IMG/VR virus record: IMGVR_UViG_3300045988_094648
Span: 1 to 5,523 of that record
DNA: 5,523 bases
Reading direction: 5' to 3' (one strand)
Source of the DNA: a virus
Under the pieces are notes generated by a model. That model did no database searches. It was not told the DNA's origin and saw nothing but the letters and a program-made list of their open reading frames with translations. Made by a program: the position numbers and the translations under genes. Shown here piece after piece: positions 1 to 5,523 of this stretch; positions within the stretch are counted from its first letter, which is position 1, and the number at the start of each line of letters is the position of its first letter.

Positions 1-904
1 AGTCTATCTGGGCACGCACACGATTTACATACTTTAGCGCATTATCTTCGGTCTGACCTTTAGCCTGCAAGTACTCGACCAGAGACCGAGCATTAAGTTC
101 ACCTTGTATGTACTTTTCAGTCATCATTTTGACTTGATTCAAGCTTGTTTCGGAGTCAAGTCGTAAAATTTCATGCGCATTCTTCTCGATATCGCTATCA
201 ATTTTCGCGATTTCGTGAGGCAGTAAAGCATTAATCCGGTTTGTTTGCGCTCCGAGATTCGCAGTTGTCGCATTTGCGACGTCTGTCTGCGGACCGCTAA
301 TATATCGAGCCTCAGCATTGTATTTATCAATCTCAGACTGCGCTTTCGCAGTGCCGACACCTTTTGTGAAATCAGCACTGGCTTGTAAATTATTCGCATT
401 AGCAAGTAGCTGCACTAATTGAGTCTCTAACATAGCCTTTTTGTAATCTGCTTCTGTTGACGCGGCACGACCTTCCTGCGTCTTTTTATATGTATCCGCA
501 CTAAGATTCAAATTTTGCTGCTCCAAATTTTTTTCCTGCTGCTGTTGAATCTTTCGATTCGTCTTAGCAGAATACATACCAGTCATAGCATTAATACCAT
601 TAGAAACATCTGAACCATAACCAGTATAAGCATTAGAGGAATAAGAAGCGGTCGCGCCGGCAGGTGTCGACGCGCCTTGGCCACCCATGCCAGAAAGCAT
701 GGGATTCAAGCCGGCTTTACGCAAATCTTCAATCTCGCGCTGATGGGCCGTGGAAGACATCTTTTCTTGCCAATCACGAGTTTTTTGCGCTTCCTGCGAT
801 TGCCATTGCATCTGCTCACGCGAAAGTGCAGCCTGGGCATTAGCCGATTTATTACCCGACCATATACCAAGGGCGGCGCCGGCGACCGACGATAAAAAAC
901 TCAT
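1..904 (-). CDS. VP2: VP2 minor capsid / DNA pilot protein, N-terminal 301 codons. The ORF is open to the window edge and continues across the circular junction into 5468..5329.
   Basis: I translated the minus strand by hand. ATG is at 904..902, preceded by AAGGAG (920..915) with a 10-nt spacer. The frame is open all the way to position 1 (MSFLSSVAGAALGIWSGNKSANAQAALSREQMQWQSQEAQKTRDWQEKMSSTAHQREIEDLRKAGLNPMLSGMGG...). Position directly downstream of VP1, the Gly/Ala-rich N-terminus and the Q/N/K-rich coiled-coil-like body fit gokushovirus VP2. The ORF track omits it because it has no in-window stop. Confidence 0.8.
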   Translation of the reverse strand, partial: MSFLSSVAGAALGIWSGNKSANAQAALSREQMQWQSQEAQKTRDWQEKMSSTAHQREIEDLRKAGLNPMLSGMGGQGASTPAGATASYSSNAYTGYGSDVSNGINAMTGMYSAKTNRKIQQQQEKNLEQQNLNLSADTYKKTQEGRAASTEADYKKAMLETQLVQLLANANNLQASADFTKGVGTAKAQSEIDKYNAEARYISGPQTDVANATTANLGAQTNRINALLPHEIAKIDSDIEKNAHEILRLDSETSLNQVKMMTEKYIQGELNARSLVEYLQAKGQTEDNALKYVNRVRAQID

Positions 905-919
905 ACGTCATCAACTCCT

Positions 920-2611
920 TTAGAAATGATCAAGCATACCAGGAACACCATAAACCGGCATGGGGCGAGCGCATTTTAAATCTAAATACGCATCAAGGTA
1001 AAACTGCGGCTCACTTTGTACAGCACTAATACGCTTAATAGCCTGATAACTAGCCTGGTCCTGAATAAACTCGCCATTAAGTGCGGGTAAAGCATCAAAT
1101 TTTTGTGCAAAATGCCAAACATCAACACTCTGTGCATAGGTACTACGCATCTTGCCGGTAATGATAGAAGGATGATACCGGCATTCGGCATAGCGTTCCT
1201 GGTAACCAAAAACCTGATTGTCGCTATCATTGCCTTGAGCATAAATTTCCTTATTGAGCACGGCCTGCTCTCCAAGGTGAGCAAAAGTAGGCCAATAAAA
1301 CTCTTCACGAGTTTGGCGCAGCCATGTCTTATTAATGCCCTGCTGATAGCTCAAATCAGTACGAATATTACATAAACCAATAACAATTCCGTGCTCAGTA
1401 AACGACTTATTAAAACCATGAACACGCGTACTCATTAAAGCATACGCAGACAAGTTACCCTGTGGGGACGTGGTATCTGTGGAGGACGTCTGTTGAACAG
1501 GATTGAACATAATTGGAGTGGAATCACCACCGAGGTATTCACTGCGCTGGAGACGGGCATCGGGCGAAATAATACCAAAGTGCGAGCGGATAATCTCCGT
1601 GTAACGAGTACCACCACGAGCATCTTTTTCGTAAAACCGCTGGAGCGCAAAGGCAGAGCGCAAACTATTAATCGTGATTGCCGTTGCACTGGACAAATCG
1701 ACCCTCGCATGGCTCGAGTCGGCGGTACCGGAAACCGTCACGCTGCCAGACATCCAGACGGGAACGTTTATATCGGAATCGGACTGCATAGTTGCATAAA
1801 GTCTCGAGTCATTAGCTACTGACACAGGCGAGCCAGAAACACCCGAGGGCCGGGGCGAAATAGGCAATCGACCCCTTAAGCTGTCGTCATTAATACTACC
1901 AGTAGCGGAAACCGGAAGTGATCCAGTAATAGTTGCAGATTGGCCAAGAGGTAACTCTACGCCAGGACCCTTTTGAGGCCAGGGCAAGGCGCTCGTAAAA
2001 TAATCATGACGCTTACCACGATAAAAACATTGAGCAGCCGTAGCATCTTGCGAAGCATCACCACCATATGCGTCATCTTCCGAGGATGTCGAAGAAAGCG
2101 GTGCACCAGTTTGGATAGACACAGCATTTTGAAGATTTTCATCACGGAACCAGTCATTATAAATCTTCCAATACGCTCTAAACGGGAACGCACTTACAGA
2201 CAACTTATTTTTTACCTCAGTCGGAAAACCGAAATAGTCCCACAACGTCTGGACCTGTGCATTCGTAGCCGTCATCTGCGGCACTTCATAGTCTTTACTT
2301 TGATAGCCTGCAAGTGGATTTTCGCCATTAAATTCCTTCCAATGCTTCCATAATAAGCGATATGGGACGAAAAAAAAGAAGGTGTCTAAGTACGCATTAT
2401 CCATCGCCGGAACAATCGGCGTGGCCATACGACCAAAAAGCGTTGCCTTACAATTAAAAGTATCACCAGGGTAGACTTCATCAATATAAAATGGAACAAG
2501 TCGACCTGCATCCAGTGTGGTTTTTACTGTATGTGAGCGCTTGAAGGAAGACCGGGGAATTTGATTCTGAGGACTTATAGCAAAACTGTGCTGAGTAGCT
2601 CTTTTTGACAT
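920..2611 (-). CDS. VP1: VP1 major capsid protein, 563 aa.
   Basis: ORF from the track. The N-terminus ...IPRSSFKRSHTVKTTLDAGRLVPFYIDEVYPGDTF... is the classic gokushovirus/microvirus F-like capsid signature. An internal Ser/Thr/Gly-rich variable insertion is also present. The RBS AGGAGA lies 9 nt upstream of ATG 2611..2609. The TAA stop is at 922..920. Confidence 0.95.
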   Translation of the reverse strand: MSKRATQHSFAISPQNQIPRSSFKRSHTVKTTLDAGRLVPFYIDEVYPGDTFNCKATLFGRMATPIVPAMDNAYLDTFFFFVPYRLLWKHWKEFNGENPLAGYQSKDYEVPQMTATNAQVQTLWDYFGFPTEVKNKLSVSAFPFRAYWKIYNDWFRDENLQNAVSIQTGAPLSSTSSEDDAYGGDASQDATAAQCFYRGKRHDYFTSALPWPQKGPGVELPLGQSATITGSLPVSATGSINDDSLRGRLPISPRPSGVSGSPVSVANDSRLYATMQSDSDINVPVWMSGSVTVSGTADSSHARVDLSSATAITINSLRSAFALQRFYEKDARGGTRYTEIIRSHFGIISPDARLQRSEYLGGDSTPIMFNPVQQTSSTDTTSPQGNLSAYALMSTRVHGFNKSFTEHGIVIGLCNIRTDLSYQQGINKTWLRQTREEFYWPTFAHLGEQAVLNKEIYAQGNDSDNQVFGYQERYAECRYHPSIITGKMRSTYAQSVDVWHFAQKFDALPALNGEFIQDQASYQAIKRISAVQSEPQFYLDAYLDLKCARPMPVYGVPGMLDHF

Positions 2612-2772: not shown

Positions 2773-3210
2773 CTAACCATTAGCATTATCGCCTGCATTA
2801 TTATCCACATTTTCCGTATGATTATCAGACTTAACAACGGTCTTGGTGGCAAGACCCATAGCCACAAGTTCGTCTAAATTTTCCGGATTATCGGCAAATT
2901 CCAGGAAAGCGGCGGGGTCGTAATTAAAACGCTTACGAACCTCCAATGGCAAATTGTCAAAGTTATTTTTAGCCTCTATCATACGATTGTACATCTCCTG
3001 TGCATTGTCCGGCAGTGATGCAAAATCACCAAAAACAGGCTGTGCCGGCTGTCCATCACCATGAAAAGTCGGCATAACACCAGAAGAATCATACATAGAG
3101 ACAATATAATTTATATCTGCCTCGTCTTTAAACTGCTGCTGAGTCAAGGAGGGCATACTAGATTTCCAACCTTCACGAACGCCTGCATTATACCTAGAGC
3201 GAATCTCCAT
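2773..3210 (-). CDS. VP3: VP3 internal scaffolding protein, about 145 aa from the internal Met. The track ORF extends to 3303, but the 5' extension lacks an RBS and overlaps the upstream gene.
   Basis: The sequence MEIRSRYNAGVREGWKSSMPSLTQQQFKDEADINYIVSMYDSSGVMPTFHGDGQPAQPVFGDFASLPDNAQEMYNRMIEAKNNFDNLPLEVRKRFNYDPAAFLEF... resembles gokushovirus scaffold proteins. AAAGGAG lies 8 nt upstream of ATG 3210..3208. Position immediately upstream of VP1. Size is typical. Confidence 0.75.
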   Translation of the reverse strand: MEIRSRYNAGVREGWKSSMPSLTQQQFKDEADINYIVSMYDSSGVMPTFHGDGQPAQPVFGDFASLPDNAQEMYNRMIEAKNNFDNLPLEVRKRFNYDPAAFLEFADNPENLDELVAMGLATKTVVKSDNHTENVDNNAGDNANG

Positions 3211-3472
3211 TAGCTTCACTCCTTTCAACATTAGCGCACTGCATGGCATGACAAATAAAAGTAGGCATATCATAAGGCTTAAGAATACCTTTCTCGTCAT
3301 CAAATTCTCCTAAGCAGTACAAATGGAAATCGCCGAGGTGCTGACTAACAAGACTCCGACTATCGTTACACAAATCACTAAAAGAACGGCCAGCAACCAG
3401 GTCATTTTGGGCAAAGTACGGCGTATTAAAGCACTGTGCCTTATCATCCAAGATTGAATAAACCTTAAGCAT
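3194..3472 (-). CDS. 92-aa VP5-like non-structural protein (putative). Its last 17 nt overlap the VP3 start.
   Basis: ORF from the track (MLKVYSILDDKAQCFNTPYFAQNDLVAGRSFSDL...LGEFDDEKGILKPYD...). AAAGGAG lies 10 nt upstream of ATG 3472..3470. Position between VP4 and VP3 is where gokushoviruses carry VP5. I recognise the family only weakly. Confidence 0.5.
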   Translation of the reverse strand: MLKVYSILDDKAQCFNTPYFAQNDLVAGRSFSDLCNDSRSLVSQHLGDFHLYCLGEFDDEKGILKPYDMPTFICHAMQCANVERSEANGDSL

Positions 3473-3508
3473 TTCGTAACAACTCCTTTTAAAATATTAA
3501 GAATAAAA

Positions 3509-3709
3509 TCAAAAATAGCGGAAACAATAACGGTCAAGATACGTGCGAGGATAGCGATTTTCCAACTCCTTTCTACTGTAAAAATATTTTGTTTTCCACG
3601 GCGAAAAACAAACAGCATCTGTAATATCAGTATTACGCGCCTTGCAATAAATCTGCCACAAATCTACTTCATCAAAGGACTCATACAATCGATGTACGTA
3701 TATACGCAT
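3509..3709 (-). CDS. 66-aa hypothetical protein. An alternative upstream ATG at 3775 would give 88 aa.
   Basis: A strong Shine-Dalgarno AAAGGAGGT sits 4 nt upstream of ATG 3709..3707 (MRIYVHRLYESFDEVDLWQIYCKARNTDITDAVCFSPWKTKYFYSRKELENRYPRTYLDRYCFRYF). It is on the coding strand between VP4 and the VP5-like gene. I recognise no homology. Confidence 0.4.
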   Translation of the reverse strand: MRIYVHRLYESFDEVDLWQIYCKARNTDITDAVCFSPWKTKYFYSRKELENRYPRTYLDRYCFRYF

Positions 3710-3838
3710 AATACCTCCTTTCACGAGAGGGAGTGTTGCTTGGAATAACAGAAAAGGATCGCTCAATTTAGACATAAAAAAATGCCCTCTCGTTGATACA
3801 ATAGTACCTTACGGGGGGGGCAAACTGTCAAGCAACAT

Positions 3839-4765
3839 CTACTCATACATATCCATATCATCATGTAGCCTTCGGACGAGCTTGGTTAGCTTACGAGCCT
3901 TTAACCGCTCTTGAACCTGGGCAACTTCATACTCTTCCGTTGTCATCGACTCGTCGCGACAATACTTGTCTTGGCGAGCCTTTTTAACTTTCTCATACAA
4001 ATCGGGGTCATCCTTTTCCAACAAGGAATCATAATACGCAGGTGGCTTACATGTCATCCCATCACGAATAACAATAAAGTCATTGGGATAAACCTGACTT
4101 TTATACTTTTCATACCAATCATGACCAAGACCTGGCATGCGTGACATCAAGACAAAAGGCTGCAGGGATTCGTCAACATCATCGCCTTTCTGCTTTTTCA
4201 TCACATAACGAGCAACATAAGCACACGATTCAAAAGTAACACCTCCAACCAAACTGAAGCCGTAGGGCCAAAGCCTTTCTAAAATTGGACTTCTATAATA
4301 CTGGAAGCCATTCTTAACCGTATGAATCATTAAATCCGGAAATCGTAAGCCAAAAATAACTGCATGGTAGTGCGGCCTTTTAAACTTATGGCCATACTCG
4401 CCGCAAGCGAAAAAGCGAAGGCCGTTACCAAACTTCTTACGAAGTCGCTTCATGAATTTCTGGAAAACATCTTTATGAATTTTACCATCTGCCGGCAGAT
4501 ATTCGGGGCTATACGTAAGCGTTAAAAAAGAACCAATACAACCAGCCGTTTCGAACTCATGTACACAACGCATGGCCCATTGCCGGCTATACTCAAGCCG
4601 GCAACCGACACACTGGCCACACGGAACATAAATTGTCTCCGGAAGTCTACCAAGTGGACGCCACGCATTTCCATAATTTGCCGTCAACGAACGCTTGCCG
4701 GTCTCTTTGTTTATCTCCTTACTATACCACATGGGAATGGGATGATAGCATGGCAAACAAATCAC
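3839..4765 (-). CDS. VP4: VP4 rolling-circle replication initiation protein (HUH endonuclease), about 305-308 aa.
   Basis: Motif I is FLTLTY. Motif II (HUH) is PHYHAVIF. Motif III is YVARYVMKK, the catalytic Tyr pair. There is also a Cys cluster CGQCVGCRLEYSRQWAMRC. The track start at 4765 is GTG, directly abutting GGGAGG. A TTG at 4756 has 8-nt spacing from GGGAGG and would give M/LPCYHPIPMWYS... Confidence 0.9.
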   Translation of the reverse strand: MICLPCYHPIPMWYSKEINKETGKRSLTANYGNAWRPLGRLPETIYVPCGQCVGCRLEYSRQWAMRCVHEFETAGCIGSFLTLTYSPEYLPADGKIHKDVFQKFMKRLRKKFGNGLRFFACGEYGHKFKRPHYHAVIFGLRFPDLMIHTVKNGFQYYRSPILERLWPYGFSLVGGVTFESCAYVARYVMKKQKGDDVDESLQPFVLMSRMPGLGHDWYEKYKSQVYPNDFIVIRDGMTCKPPAYYDSLLEKDDPDLYEKVKKARQDKYCRDESMTTEEYEVAQVQERLKARKLTKLVRRLHDDMDMYE

Positions 4766-4788: not shown

Positions 4789-4902
4789 CTACATTCTAAA
4801 TCCACCGCGCATAGGGATGGGGCGATTATTTTTCGGATTAACCGTCATTCCACGACGGAAATTTTTACCACTCTTTTTTTTACTCATTTTCTGCCGTTTC
4901 AT
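4789..4902 (-). CDS. VP8: VP8/J-like small basic DNA-binding (packaging) protein, 37 aa.
   Basis: Manual translation gives MKRQKMSKKKSGKNFRRGMTVNPKNNRPIPMRGGFRM*. It has 13 Lys/Arg and no acidic residues. It ends in the PMRGGFR-type tail seen in gokushovirus ORF8/VP8 proteins. AAGGAG lies 10 nt upstream of ATG 4902..4900. It sits immediately upstream of VP4. It is missed by the track because of its size. Confidence 0.7.
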   Translation of the reverse strand: MKRQKMSKKKSGKNFRRGMTVNPKNNRPIPMRGGFRM

Positions 4903-4916
4903 ACAACATCAACTCC

Positions 4917-5012
4917 TTATAAAAAAACATCCAATACACTAATCACAAAAGAGACGACTAAAATGCCTAGCACAAGCCAACAAAACAATGCAACCGGCGT
5001 ACTAACCTTCAT
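4917..5012 (-). CDS. 31-aa single-pass transmembrane peptide. Hypothetical; candidate lysis or membrane-active peptide.
   Basis: Manual translation gives MKVSTPVALFCWLVLGILVVSFVISVLDVFL*. AAGGAGA lies 9 nt upstream. Its ATG (5012..5010) overlaps the TGA of the upstream ORF (ATGA). Its TAA (4919..4917) overlaps the VP8 RBS. The 21-residue uninterrupted hydrophobic core has a short polar N-terminus. Confidence 0.5.
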   Translation of the reverse strand: MKVSTPVALFCWLVLGILVVSFVISVLDVFL

Positions 5013-5173
5013 TTCTCGCCATCTCCTTTCATAATTTCCCAAAAATACTTAGACCGCTGCTCATGGGACAAATCATTAATCGACAGCGCATCAAAAACGC
5101 GCATCAAACGCAATGCAATCTTAATACGTTTATACTCATCATCTGAACAATAAATACTACGAGTTTTTCTCAT
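5009..5173 (-). CDS. 54-aa basic protein with an RHH-like (ribbon-helix-helix / MobC-CopG-like) N-terminal pattern. Putative DNA-binding regulator.
   Basis: Manual translation gives MRKTRSIYCSDDEYKRIKIALRLMRVFDALSINDLSHEQRSKYFWEIMKGDGEK*. GAGGTG lies 6 nt upstream of ATG 5173..5171. It is the first gene after a near-consensus promoter. The pattern is basic residues, then a short beta-like stretch (TRSIYCS), then DDEYKRIKIA, as in the RHH/MobC 'R..I.I.LS.EE...L...A' motif. The assignment is tentative. Confidence 0.5.
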   Translation of the reverse strand: MRKTRSIYCSDDEYKRIKIALRLMRVFDALSINDLSHEQRSKYFWEIMKGDGEK

Positions 5174-5192
5174 ATCTATCACCTCTATTAAT

Positions 5193-5216
5193 ATTCTAAC
5201 ACATACTTAATAGAAT
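5193..5216. promoter_or_regulatory. Inverted repeat ATTCTA-N12-TAGAAT overlapping the -35/-10 elements. Candidate operator.
   Basis: Plus strand 5193..5216 reads attctaacacatacttaatagaat. The 6-bp arms are perfect reverse complements. One arm is the -10 hexamer and the other abuts the -35. Confidence 0.3.
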
Positions 5217-5221
5217 GTCAA
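5193..5221 (-). promoter_or_regulatory. Sigma70-type promoter on the coding strand: -35 TTGACA (5221..5216), 17-nt spacer, -10 TAGAAT (5198..5193).
   Basis: Read directly from the sequence. The -35 is a 6/6 match and the -10 a 5/6 match with optimal 17-nt spacing. There is an A/T-rich UP-like stretch upstream (atctttttgtttgtatccta). It is followed 19 nt later by an SD+ATG. It is the only strong promoter match on the coding strand that I found. Confidence 0.6.
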
Positions 5222-5328
5222 TAGGATACAAACAAAAAGATGATAGCCGGCTAAACGCCATCGTACGTCACCGTTCCACTAATACGAAAGAAAAACAATT
5301 CCGCTGAGGCAGCCAAAGGGAAACCAAA

Positions 5329-5523
5329 TCACTTAAAAATTTGTGTAACAAGACCGAGCGGGCTGGCATCAACAAGACCTTTTGCATTGCCAAGGATACG
5401 AGCTAGACGCTCATAAGGACCCTGCGGGGTAACGCCAGAGTAGCGATTCTGAATTTGATACTGTTTCAAGTCTATCTGGGCACGCACACGATTTACATAC
5501 TTTAGCGCATTATCTTCGGTCTG
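5329..5523 (-). CDS. VP2: VP2 C-terminal portion. Bases 5469..5523 duplicate 1..55. The TGA stop is at 5331..5329. The full protein is about 347 aa on the 5,468-nt circle.
   Basis: The frame runs continuously from the 1..904 segment through the junction. Manual translation gives ...LKQYQIQNRYSGVTPQGPYERLARILGNAKGLVDASPLGLVTQIFK*. Confidence 0.75.
   Translation of the reverse strand, partial: QTEDNALKYVNRVRAQIDLKQYQIQNRYSGVTPQGPYERLARILGNAKGLVDASPLGLVTQIFK
5469..5523. repeat. 55-nt terminal redundancy identical to 1..55. This is the circular-genome closure (assembly/windowing overlap), not a biological repeat.
   Basis: Exact identity checked base by base. The implied unit length is 5,468 nt. 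Confidence 0.9.

Follow-up and report, generated by a model that had tools for sequence, protein, structure and literature searches.

A clade-specific unit of a promoter and two small genes in a gut gokushovirus, a candidate immunity module found also in bacterial chromosomes and CRISPR arrays

Modules that pair a small regulator with a membrane peptide are familiar from double-stranded DNA phages and plasmids. The immunity (imm) cassettes of lambdoid phages combine a repressor, operators over the early promoter and, often, small membrane exclusion genes such as sieB or rexB, and in type II toxin-antitoxin (TA) systems with ribbon-helix-helix (RHH) antitoxins, such as ParD/ParE, CcdA/CcdB and RelB/RelE, two small overlapping genes follow a palindromic promoter. 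Microviruses have tiny membrane proteins as well, namely phiX174 E (lysis) and K. To our knowledge, essentially nothing is known about how gokushoviruses, which are among the most abundant gut phages, control transcription, exclude competitors or persist in the cell, and we know of no immunity system in the Microviridae. Here we analyse a unit of one promoter and two small open reading frames (ORFs), designated A and B, in the gokushovirus record IMGVR_UViG_3300045988_094648. The stretch analysed (5523 nt, hereafter the window) holds one full circular genome, 5468 nt in length, in which VP2 spans the junction, and belongs to a virus from the pig gut that probably infects Megasphaera-like Negativicutes. 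On the minus strand, VP2 is followed by the promoter, A, B and then, on the same transcript, the J/VP8-like gene (Table 1). Enterogokushovirus prophages share this gene order, and their VP2-VP8 interval was termed a variable non-coding region (PMC7062461).

A and B are real genes under purifying selection. GenBank, IMG/VR and metagenome assemblies together supplied 36 loci, all with an intact A and 35 with an intact B, the sole frameshift being located near the 3' end of B in L017. Each close relative examined has kept the promoter, both ORFs and the overlap of the A stop with the B start, which amounts to 4 to 20 nt across all loci. Substitutions fall mostly at third codon positions in both genes, and the pooled ratio of nonsynonymous to synonymous polymorphism (pN/pS) is 0.28 and 0.19 in the two allele groups of A and 0.29 and 0.47 in those of B. 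In the window, the ATG of B lies within the TGA of A (ATGA), and the TAA stop of B is fused to the Shine-Dalgarno (SD) motif of J (TAAGGAG). The ORF list also contains a 57-aa version of A that starts from a GTG within the SD. A preliminary description of the window, made from the sequence alone, had proposed two tightly packed tiny genes with good SDs at 4917..5221, coupled stop and start codons, an overlap of the B stop with the ribosome-binding site of J, and the absence of both genes from annotation in an interval that is otherwise non-coding. All of this is borne out, on the minus strand and with GAGGTG and AGGAG as the SDs of A and B. Neither ORF is annotated in the seven GenBank relatives inspected, and distant relatives in which VP4 follows VP2 have an interval of about 220 nt without any ORF of at least 25 aa, in keeping with the published designation of this region. 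The drift and frameshifts in relatives that had been named as evidence against the genes are not what the 36 loci display.

No part of the genome diverges more than the block formed by the promoter, A and B, a hot-spot among otherwise similar phages. The closest annotated relatives of the window are pig-gut gokushoviruses with about 85% nucleotide identity. Over 29 close relatives, the median amino acid identity to the window is 95% for VP2, 94% for J, 92% for VP4, 89% for VP5, 88% for VP3 and 85% for VP1. For A the median is 67% (range 31-83%), and B was detected in 16 of the 29. The alleles of B are so unlike each other that tblastn joins only some of them (MKVSTPVALFCW... versus MIKFILFCWSL...). 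All relatives keep the promoter; the two allele groups differ in its boxes, which read TTGACA..TAGAAT and TTGACT..TATAAT, respectively. Since the promoter type thus changes along with the A/B allele group, promoter, A and B are swapped as one unit. Among gokushoviruses the block is clade-specific. A hidden Markov model (HMM) of A detected the gene in all close relatives except L003, a partial record, and in none of 65 gokushoviruses whose VP4 is at most 50% identical. Small ORFs with a transmembrane (TM) segment 5' of VP4 in distant gokushoviruses were considered as analogues and rejected, as they are alternative-frame overlaps in VP2 that lack an SD. In one locus, L006, an additional Cys-rich ORF of 90 aa that has an SD of its own is placed between promoter and A (L006:4919-5191); it matched no family, and the slot thus takes additional cargo.

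With a score of 11/12, the sigma-70-type promoter in front of A is the top promoter-like site on either strand of the window. The window contains nine promoter-like sites in total versus a mean of 11.7 in shuffled sequences, and because this count is no higher than in the shuffled set, the case for the promoter rests on how good and how well conserved this single site is. The near-consensus promoter of the preliminary description is thus confirmed, and so is the coupling that made the genes appear as a promoter-driven mini-operon; a promoter private to the cassette is not what we find. As the only strong promoter-like site in a genome with all genes on one strand, it makes A the first gene of the main transcript. 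The only promoter-like site on the opposite strand near the cassette (plus strand, 5188-5216) is weak (9/12); no dedicated search for a cis-encoded antisense RNA was made.

The -10 box is bracketed by an inverted repeat, TCTATTAA/TTAATAGA, whose arms match perfectly over 8 bp (8/8). Of 5000 dinucleotide shuffles of the region, 53 contained an inverted repeat as perfect over 8 bp, and the motif TCTRTTAR has exactly two copies in the whole genome, which are the two arms. The repeat is kept in both allele groups, the arms of the second being CTTTCTAT/ATAGAAAG. In L107 the arms extend over 11 bp. L108 likewise has 11-bp arms, in which both sides are altered together, from TCTATTAG/CTAATAGA to TCTGTTAG/CTAACAGA, so that an A:T pair is replaced by G:C; L019 and L104 carry the same compensatory G/C variant. 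An inverted repeat with compensatory changes at this position suggests that a dimeric regulator binds around the -10 box. The left arm lies 5' of every plausible transcription start, which makes a hairpin in the mRNA a less likely explanation of the repeat than a protein-binding site or a feature of the single-stranded DNA. Inverted or tandem subsites at the own promoter are expected of RHH regulators, and the candidate operator has such subsites, which is consistent with an RHH protein but not specific to it.

A is an orphan protein. Most of its basic residues lie in the N-terminal half, as do all invariant positions (S6, Y8, C9, E13, R16, L21 and R25), and the C-terminal half is acidic and variable. 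An AlphaFold2 (AF2) model with a predicted local distance difference test (pLDDT) score of 82 has an extended N-terminus (coil) and two helices (residues 11-29 and 37-49). Clustered at 90% identity, its family amounts to 67 clusters in a database of 5.8 billion proteins, and most of these come from contigs about 5.4 kb long. An exhaustive profile search of 1.84e9 representatives returned 11 that reach E<=1e-3 and no tie to a named family, and a profile search of the PDB with the A family gave a chance match only (E=0.41). A marginal locus from a scan of reference genomes (L013, Cyclobacteriaceae) was discarded as chance, since the A profile did not confirm it. The RHH label given to A in the preliminary description is unsupported: A has no match in Pfam, PHROG, NCBIfam, PADLOC or PDB, none of 38 A-family members matches an RHH family at E<=10, and fold searches show no RHH. 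Alignments by hhalign with Arc and CopG, whose sequences were entered by hand, were not significant (probabilities of 0.2% and 1.2%, respectively); A was set on CopG in the RHH register, at that probability of 1.2% only. The RHH fold exists as a dimer only, and A may still adopt it. In P0110, a distant family member of 87 aa, the conserved N-terminal motif occurs twice in tandem through a natural duplication. Its AF2 model, of low confidence (pLDDT 60) and without any fold match, predicts both motif copies as beta strands, each followed by a helix, and may be read as a weak hint toward an RHH fold.

B is recognizable by its design. Across alleles it is 31-38 aa long, with FC[WC] near the N-terminus, a single hydrophobic helix in one uninterrupted stretch and a C-terminus of the form S/G-x-[LIV]-D-x-[LF]. 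B matched no family in Pfam, PHROG, NCBIfam or PADLOC, and its other alleles matched none in Pfam, NCBIfam or PADLOC. B thus falls within the range of type I toxin-like peptides (Hok, Fst, TisB class), which are hydrophobic, 20-60 aa long and have a single TM helix, a likeness of composition only.

In three contexts on bacterial chromosomes, promoter, A and B are also present with the rest of the phage missing. In the first (L008-L012, on contigs of up to 385 kb), a phage fragment of about 633 nt is flanked by a LysR gene on one side and a truncated one on the other. Its sequence corresponds to that of L107-like phages (closest L107 and L108), beginning with the final ~110 nt of VP2 and ending shortly ahead of the VP4 start; promoter, A, B and J are all intact, and VP1 and VP4 are missing. 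The L008-type B allele was found on 87 contigs versus 558 for the adjacent gene of ribosomal protein S2 (rpsB), and the fragment is therefore apparently present in a subset of strains only. [quoted passage not shown] The two other contexts are such arrays, regularly built of 29-nt repeats and 32-nt spacers, with the unit in spacer position. In L096, L097 and L098, five 29-nt repeats (GTATGCCCCGCATGCGCGGGGATGATCCC) are spaced 61, 345, 61 and 61 nt, and the long interval holds exactly the unit of about 313 nt from the -35 box through the B stop and the following SD. L099 comes from a different sample and differs in its repeat (GTCTTTCCCGCG.AAGCGGGGGTGATCCT) and flanking genes; here the captured piece measures about 355 nt and includes some 50 extra upstream nucleotides. 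Because their ends differ in all three cases, the captures are independent, and promoter, A and B are their common denominator. All three contexts retain the promoter, the repeat arms and both ORFs, and the ratio of nonsynonymous to synonymous substitution rates (omega) is 0.08-0.48 between chromosomal and phage copies and between the two array copies. As hosts have captured it at least three times, the unit probably functions on its own.

One of the array carriers can be tied to the phage. The RF3 of the bacterium with the second capture is 87% identical to Megasphaera RF3, with Veillonellaceae and other Negativicutes as the next named matches, which points to a Megasphaera-like Negativicute as the host. 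An ordinary 32-nt spacer of the same array (spacer 4, L096:1607-1638) matches VP1 of the clade phages L016, L018 and L021 at 27 of 32 positions, and VP1 of the window at 25 of 32 (about 2108..2077, minus strand), which links the carrier bacterium to this phage clade. In both arrays the unit is oriented like the G-first strand of the repeats, which, by analogy with the I-E repeat found in Escherichia coli, we take to be the transcribed one. No cas gene was found within about 10 kb downstream or 1.1 kb upstream of the L096 array, which may thus be an orphan, and at the Rfam gathering threshold no CRISPR-DR family was matched, the sole match being a TPP riboswitch in the L096 host flank. The repeat core is confined to L096-L098 and L099 and occurs neither in the phage loci nor in the window. 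Recombination into the arrays via phage-borne CRISPR repeats was therefore dismissed. The unit could have entered through aberrant Cas1-Cas2 integration of a long fragment, or through illegitimate or spacer-guided recombination followed by deletion.

We tentatively favour, with somewhat less than even confidence, the view that promoter, A and B form a self-contained, lineage-specific module for autoregulated immunity or superinfection exclusion, whose most plausible role is to control or block infection by related viruses. What speaks for immunity is the promoter-proximal position, the palindrome, the replacement of alleles as a unit, the extreme divergence and the repeated retention by hosts. 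A would be a small dimeric nucleic-acid-binding protein, with its basic N-terminal motif (K-T/S-R-S-x-Y-C) probably forming a two-stranded ribbon. It would bind the inverted half-sites around the -10 box and repress the promoter from which A, B, J and VP4 are transcribed. In the phage, such repression would autoregulate early transcription; a resident copy, whether episomal, chromosomal or embedded in an array, would shut down incoming phages with matching operators and thereby confer immunity. B, made in fixed proportion to A, would insert into the inner membrane with its N-terminus inside and act as a membrane effector that most likely blocks superinfection at the step of DNA delivery. The allelic diversity of the block would then reflect escape from immunity. 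A narrower proposal concerns the arrays of gut Negativicutes, where the whole module would have been captured instead of a spacer, at least twice independently, and retained as protection against gokushoviruses or as an array stabiliser; we consider this rather unlikely.

Several points weigh against an immunity function. The arms carry one mismatch in several alleles (L014, L100), their centre-to-centre spacing differs between the allele groups (about 23 versus 31 bp), and the repeat pattern partly overlaps promoter consensus positions. Because of these mismatches and the group-dependent spacing, the evidence for an operator is suggestive, not conclusive, and the repeat could also be due to a host factor or to hairpin formation in the single-stranded genome. 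The family and fold searches above yielded no DNA-binding family for A; its DNA binding is putative, as is an exclusion role of B. Persistence in chromosomes could reflect addiction or recent insertion rather than a benefit to the host. Finally, we came across no account of a repressor or exclusion gene in Microviridae in the literature searched.

The main rival is addiction, with B as a membrane-damaging toxin and A as its transcriptional repressor or neutraliser. In the phage, such a TA-like pair would keep the episomal replicative form stable during a carrier state; from chromosomes and arrays it could not be lost without killing the cell, which would incidentally guard the surrounding array from deletion. 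The layout resembles type II systems in its strong promoter with palindrome, small basic first protein, overlap of 4-20 nt and allelic diversity, B is similar to type I toxins in size and hydrophobicity as read from its sequence, and the isolated unit persists in three chromosomal places. For gokushoviruses, persistence in surviving cells in the form of circular DNA is also known (PMC7062461), and TA cargo inside CRISPR-cas loci has been documented (10.1101/2023.03.03.530964). However, neither protein, other alleles included, matches a TA or defence family in Pfam, NCBIfam or PADLOC, and B has almost no cytoplasmic part that a soluble protein of 54 aa could sequester. Antisense RNA is the usual means of control for small membrane toxins, and no search was made for one here; the coupled translation would yield toxin whenever antitoxin is made. 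Addiction alone would also leave the co-variation of operator type and allele group unexplained, and we regard it as unlikely on balance. Array copies and orphan genes could instead point to early anti-defence functions, for example an anti-CRISPR and a partner, and to an interplay with type I-E-like CRISPR. Small, orphan, fast-evolving genes directly behind a strong early promoter with a palindrome recall acr-aca operons, in which small genes follow such a promoter, and two of the three captures lie in CRISPR arrays, one of which targets this phage clade. Yet no helix-turn-helix (HTH) or Aca-type protein was detected in the cassette, a membrane peptide of 31 aa is unlikely to inhibit Cas proteins, and an anti-CRISPR borne on an array would disarm its own host, which makes retention hard to explain. 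As the L008-type capture is located outside arrays, too, an anti-defence function appears distinctly improbable.

Lysis has still less in its favour. Where small phages lyse their hosts through a single gene, its product is a short membrane protein, as with phiX174 E; a gokushovirus lysis gene is neither named in the literature retrieved nor known to us, and B, conserved and membrane-embedded, might be this missing peptide (amurin or holin-like), with A timing or restraining it. However, its place as second gene behind the strongest promoter, with a good SD and coupled translation, would cause early and high expression, just what a lysis gene must avoid. Intact B is stably carried with its own promoter in bacterial chromosomes from many samples (the 87 contigs noted above), and none of the 65 more distant gokushoviruses, which have to lyse their hosts as well, carries the cassette. 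A lysis cassette is hence very improbable. That the ORFs are chance open frames in a variable non-coding spacer might seem plausible given their shortness, the lack of homologs beyond the clade and their absence from GenBank annotations, but this idea is effectively refuted: both frames stay open across synonymous divergence (dS) of up to about 1 with omega well below 1, SDs and overlap are conserved, and two very different allele families share one architecture. Among the functions listed in the preliminary description, a regulator with an effector for immunity or exclusion thus fits best, a TA-like pair comes next and lysis is least compatible.

The surroundings of the cassette are those of an ordinary gokushovirus, with every gene recognizable by Pfam on the minus strand. 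Between the VP2 stop and the promoter lies a near-invariant non-coding block of 39 nt, whose exact core is present in 19 loci and which in L002 and L006 is placed between VP4 and VP5. It has no stable predicted fold; it could be an origin, a packaging site or an attachment site, and is a neighbour of the cassette. An Rfam scan of the window gave no match. In one allele lineage, a GC-rich hairpin (CCGCGCGCAATAAAATG(T/C)GCGTG) that may be a terminator follows just 3' of the VP2 stop (L107:3895-3925, L008:9905-9935 and L099:30-60); it has travelled into two of the chromosomal captures and is not found in the window. Between VP4 and VP5, an ORF of 88 aa (3509..3775, minus strand) is detectable in only 7 of 29 close relatives, and this site is a second variable accessory slot. 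A hydrophobic ORF of 102 aa (3310..3618, minus strand) overlaps the VP5 start in another frame and recurs in 28 of the 29 with a median identity of 80%; it may be an overlapping gene, or its conservation may merely be imposed by VP5.

Table 1. Features of the window and locations of the captured units in bacterial contigs
Feature	Position	Strand	Remarks
Terminal overlap	1..55 and 5469..5523		55 nt; bases at the start repeated at the end
Sigma-70-type promoter	5193..5221	-	-35 TTGACA 5221..5216; 17-nt spacer; extended -10 TG 5201..5200 and TAGAAT 5198..5193
Inverted repeat, left arm	5207..5214	-	TCTATTAA; candidate operator half-site; directly 3' of -35 box
Inverted repeat, right arm	5184..5191	-	TTAATAGA; candidate operator half-site; between -10 box and SD of A
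Third half-site copy	5203..5196	-	TGTGTTAG; direct; overlaps extended -10; read from sequences
ORF A	5009..5173	-	54 aa, MRKTRSIYCSDDEYKRIKIALRLMRVFDALSINDLSHEQRSKYFWEIMKGDGEK; SD GAGGTG 5185..5180; ATG at 5173; stop at 5009
ORF B	4917..5012	-	31 aa, MKVSTPVALFCWLVLGILVVSFVISVLDVFL; SD AGGAG 5027..5023; one predicted TM helix
J/VP8-like gene	4902..4789	-	37-aa basic protein; phrog_10695, E=7.5e-8; 84-100% identical in relatives
VP4/Rep	4765..3839	-	replication initiator; Pfam
VP5	3472..3194	-	Pfam
VP3	about 3303..2773	-	scaffold; Pfam
VP1	2611..920	-	capsid; Pfam
VP2	904..1 joined to 5468..5329	-	Pfam
39-nt block	5249..5287	-	TCGTATTAGTGGAACGGTGACGTACGATGGCGTTTAGCC (TCGTATTAGTGGAACGGTGACGTAC...GGCGTTTAGCC); near-invariant, non-coding; between VP2 stop and promoter
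Capture, context 1	L008:9828-10459		same in L009-L012; VP2 3' end, hairpin, promoter, A, B, J
Capture, context 2	L096:1111-1667		array with unit; also L097, L098; several samples
Capture, context 3	L099:1-418		unit between two repeats 389 nt apart at contig end

New here are the orphan proteins, the presence of such a module in Microviridae, and gene-bearing cargo at CRISPR spacer positions; we found no report of this cassette in the literature, nor of gene-bearing DNA in spacer positions. A conserved, exchangeable unit of promoter, putative regulator and membrane peptide would give the family its first candidate module for control or immunity, and offers a concrete object of 300 nt. Its independent captures by hosts represent a natural experiment, and its location at spacer positions raises the mechanistic question of how long, gene-bearing DNA gets between repeats. 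The analysis also links an uncultured phage clade to Megasphaera-like hosts. If our interpretation as an immunity module is correct, the arrays would harbour a protein-based immunity cassette inside a locus of RNA-guided immunity, and the cassette would be the first described repressor or exclusion system of Microviridae.

Among known systems, the lambdoid imm cassettes are close to the module. In both, a block of promoter, operator and small regulator is exchanged between near-identical genomes and is their most divergent region, a palindromic site overlaps the -10 box, a membrane protein is co-encoded, and bacteria keep the block after the phage has been lost. Unlike the lambdoid cassettes, the module described here has only about 300 nt and resides in a single-stranded DNA microvirus of 5.5 kb without an integrase; its regulator has 54 aa, no HTH and no detectable homology, and binding and immunity are putative. 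Type II TA systems with RHH antitoxins are similar in gene order, stop/start overlap, promoter palindrome (with autoregulation putative here), small basic first protein, allelic diversity and chromosomal persistence. In these systems, however, the second gene encodes a soluble toxin about 100 aa long and not a TM peptide of 31 aa; the RHH fold is unconfirmed for A, and neither A nor B belongs to a TA family. The tiny membrane proteins E and K of phiX174 resemble B in kind but are embedded out of frame within other genes, and E-type lysis genes are usually weakly translated. B is free-standing, coupled and promoter-proximal, shares no sequence similarity with E or K and tolerates chromosomal carriage. 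The array copies, finally, are comparable to the cargo and toxin modules of CRISPR-cas loci (CreTA; repeat-flanked cargo, 10.1101/2023.03.03.530964), which also place non-spacer cargo between CRISPR repeats. CreTA consists of an RNA toxin with a mini-array antitoxin and is sited between cas genes, whereas the cargo here is a phage promoter with two protein genes at a spacer position in a regular array.

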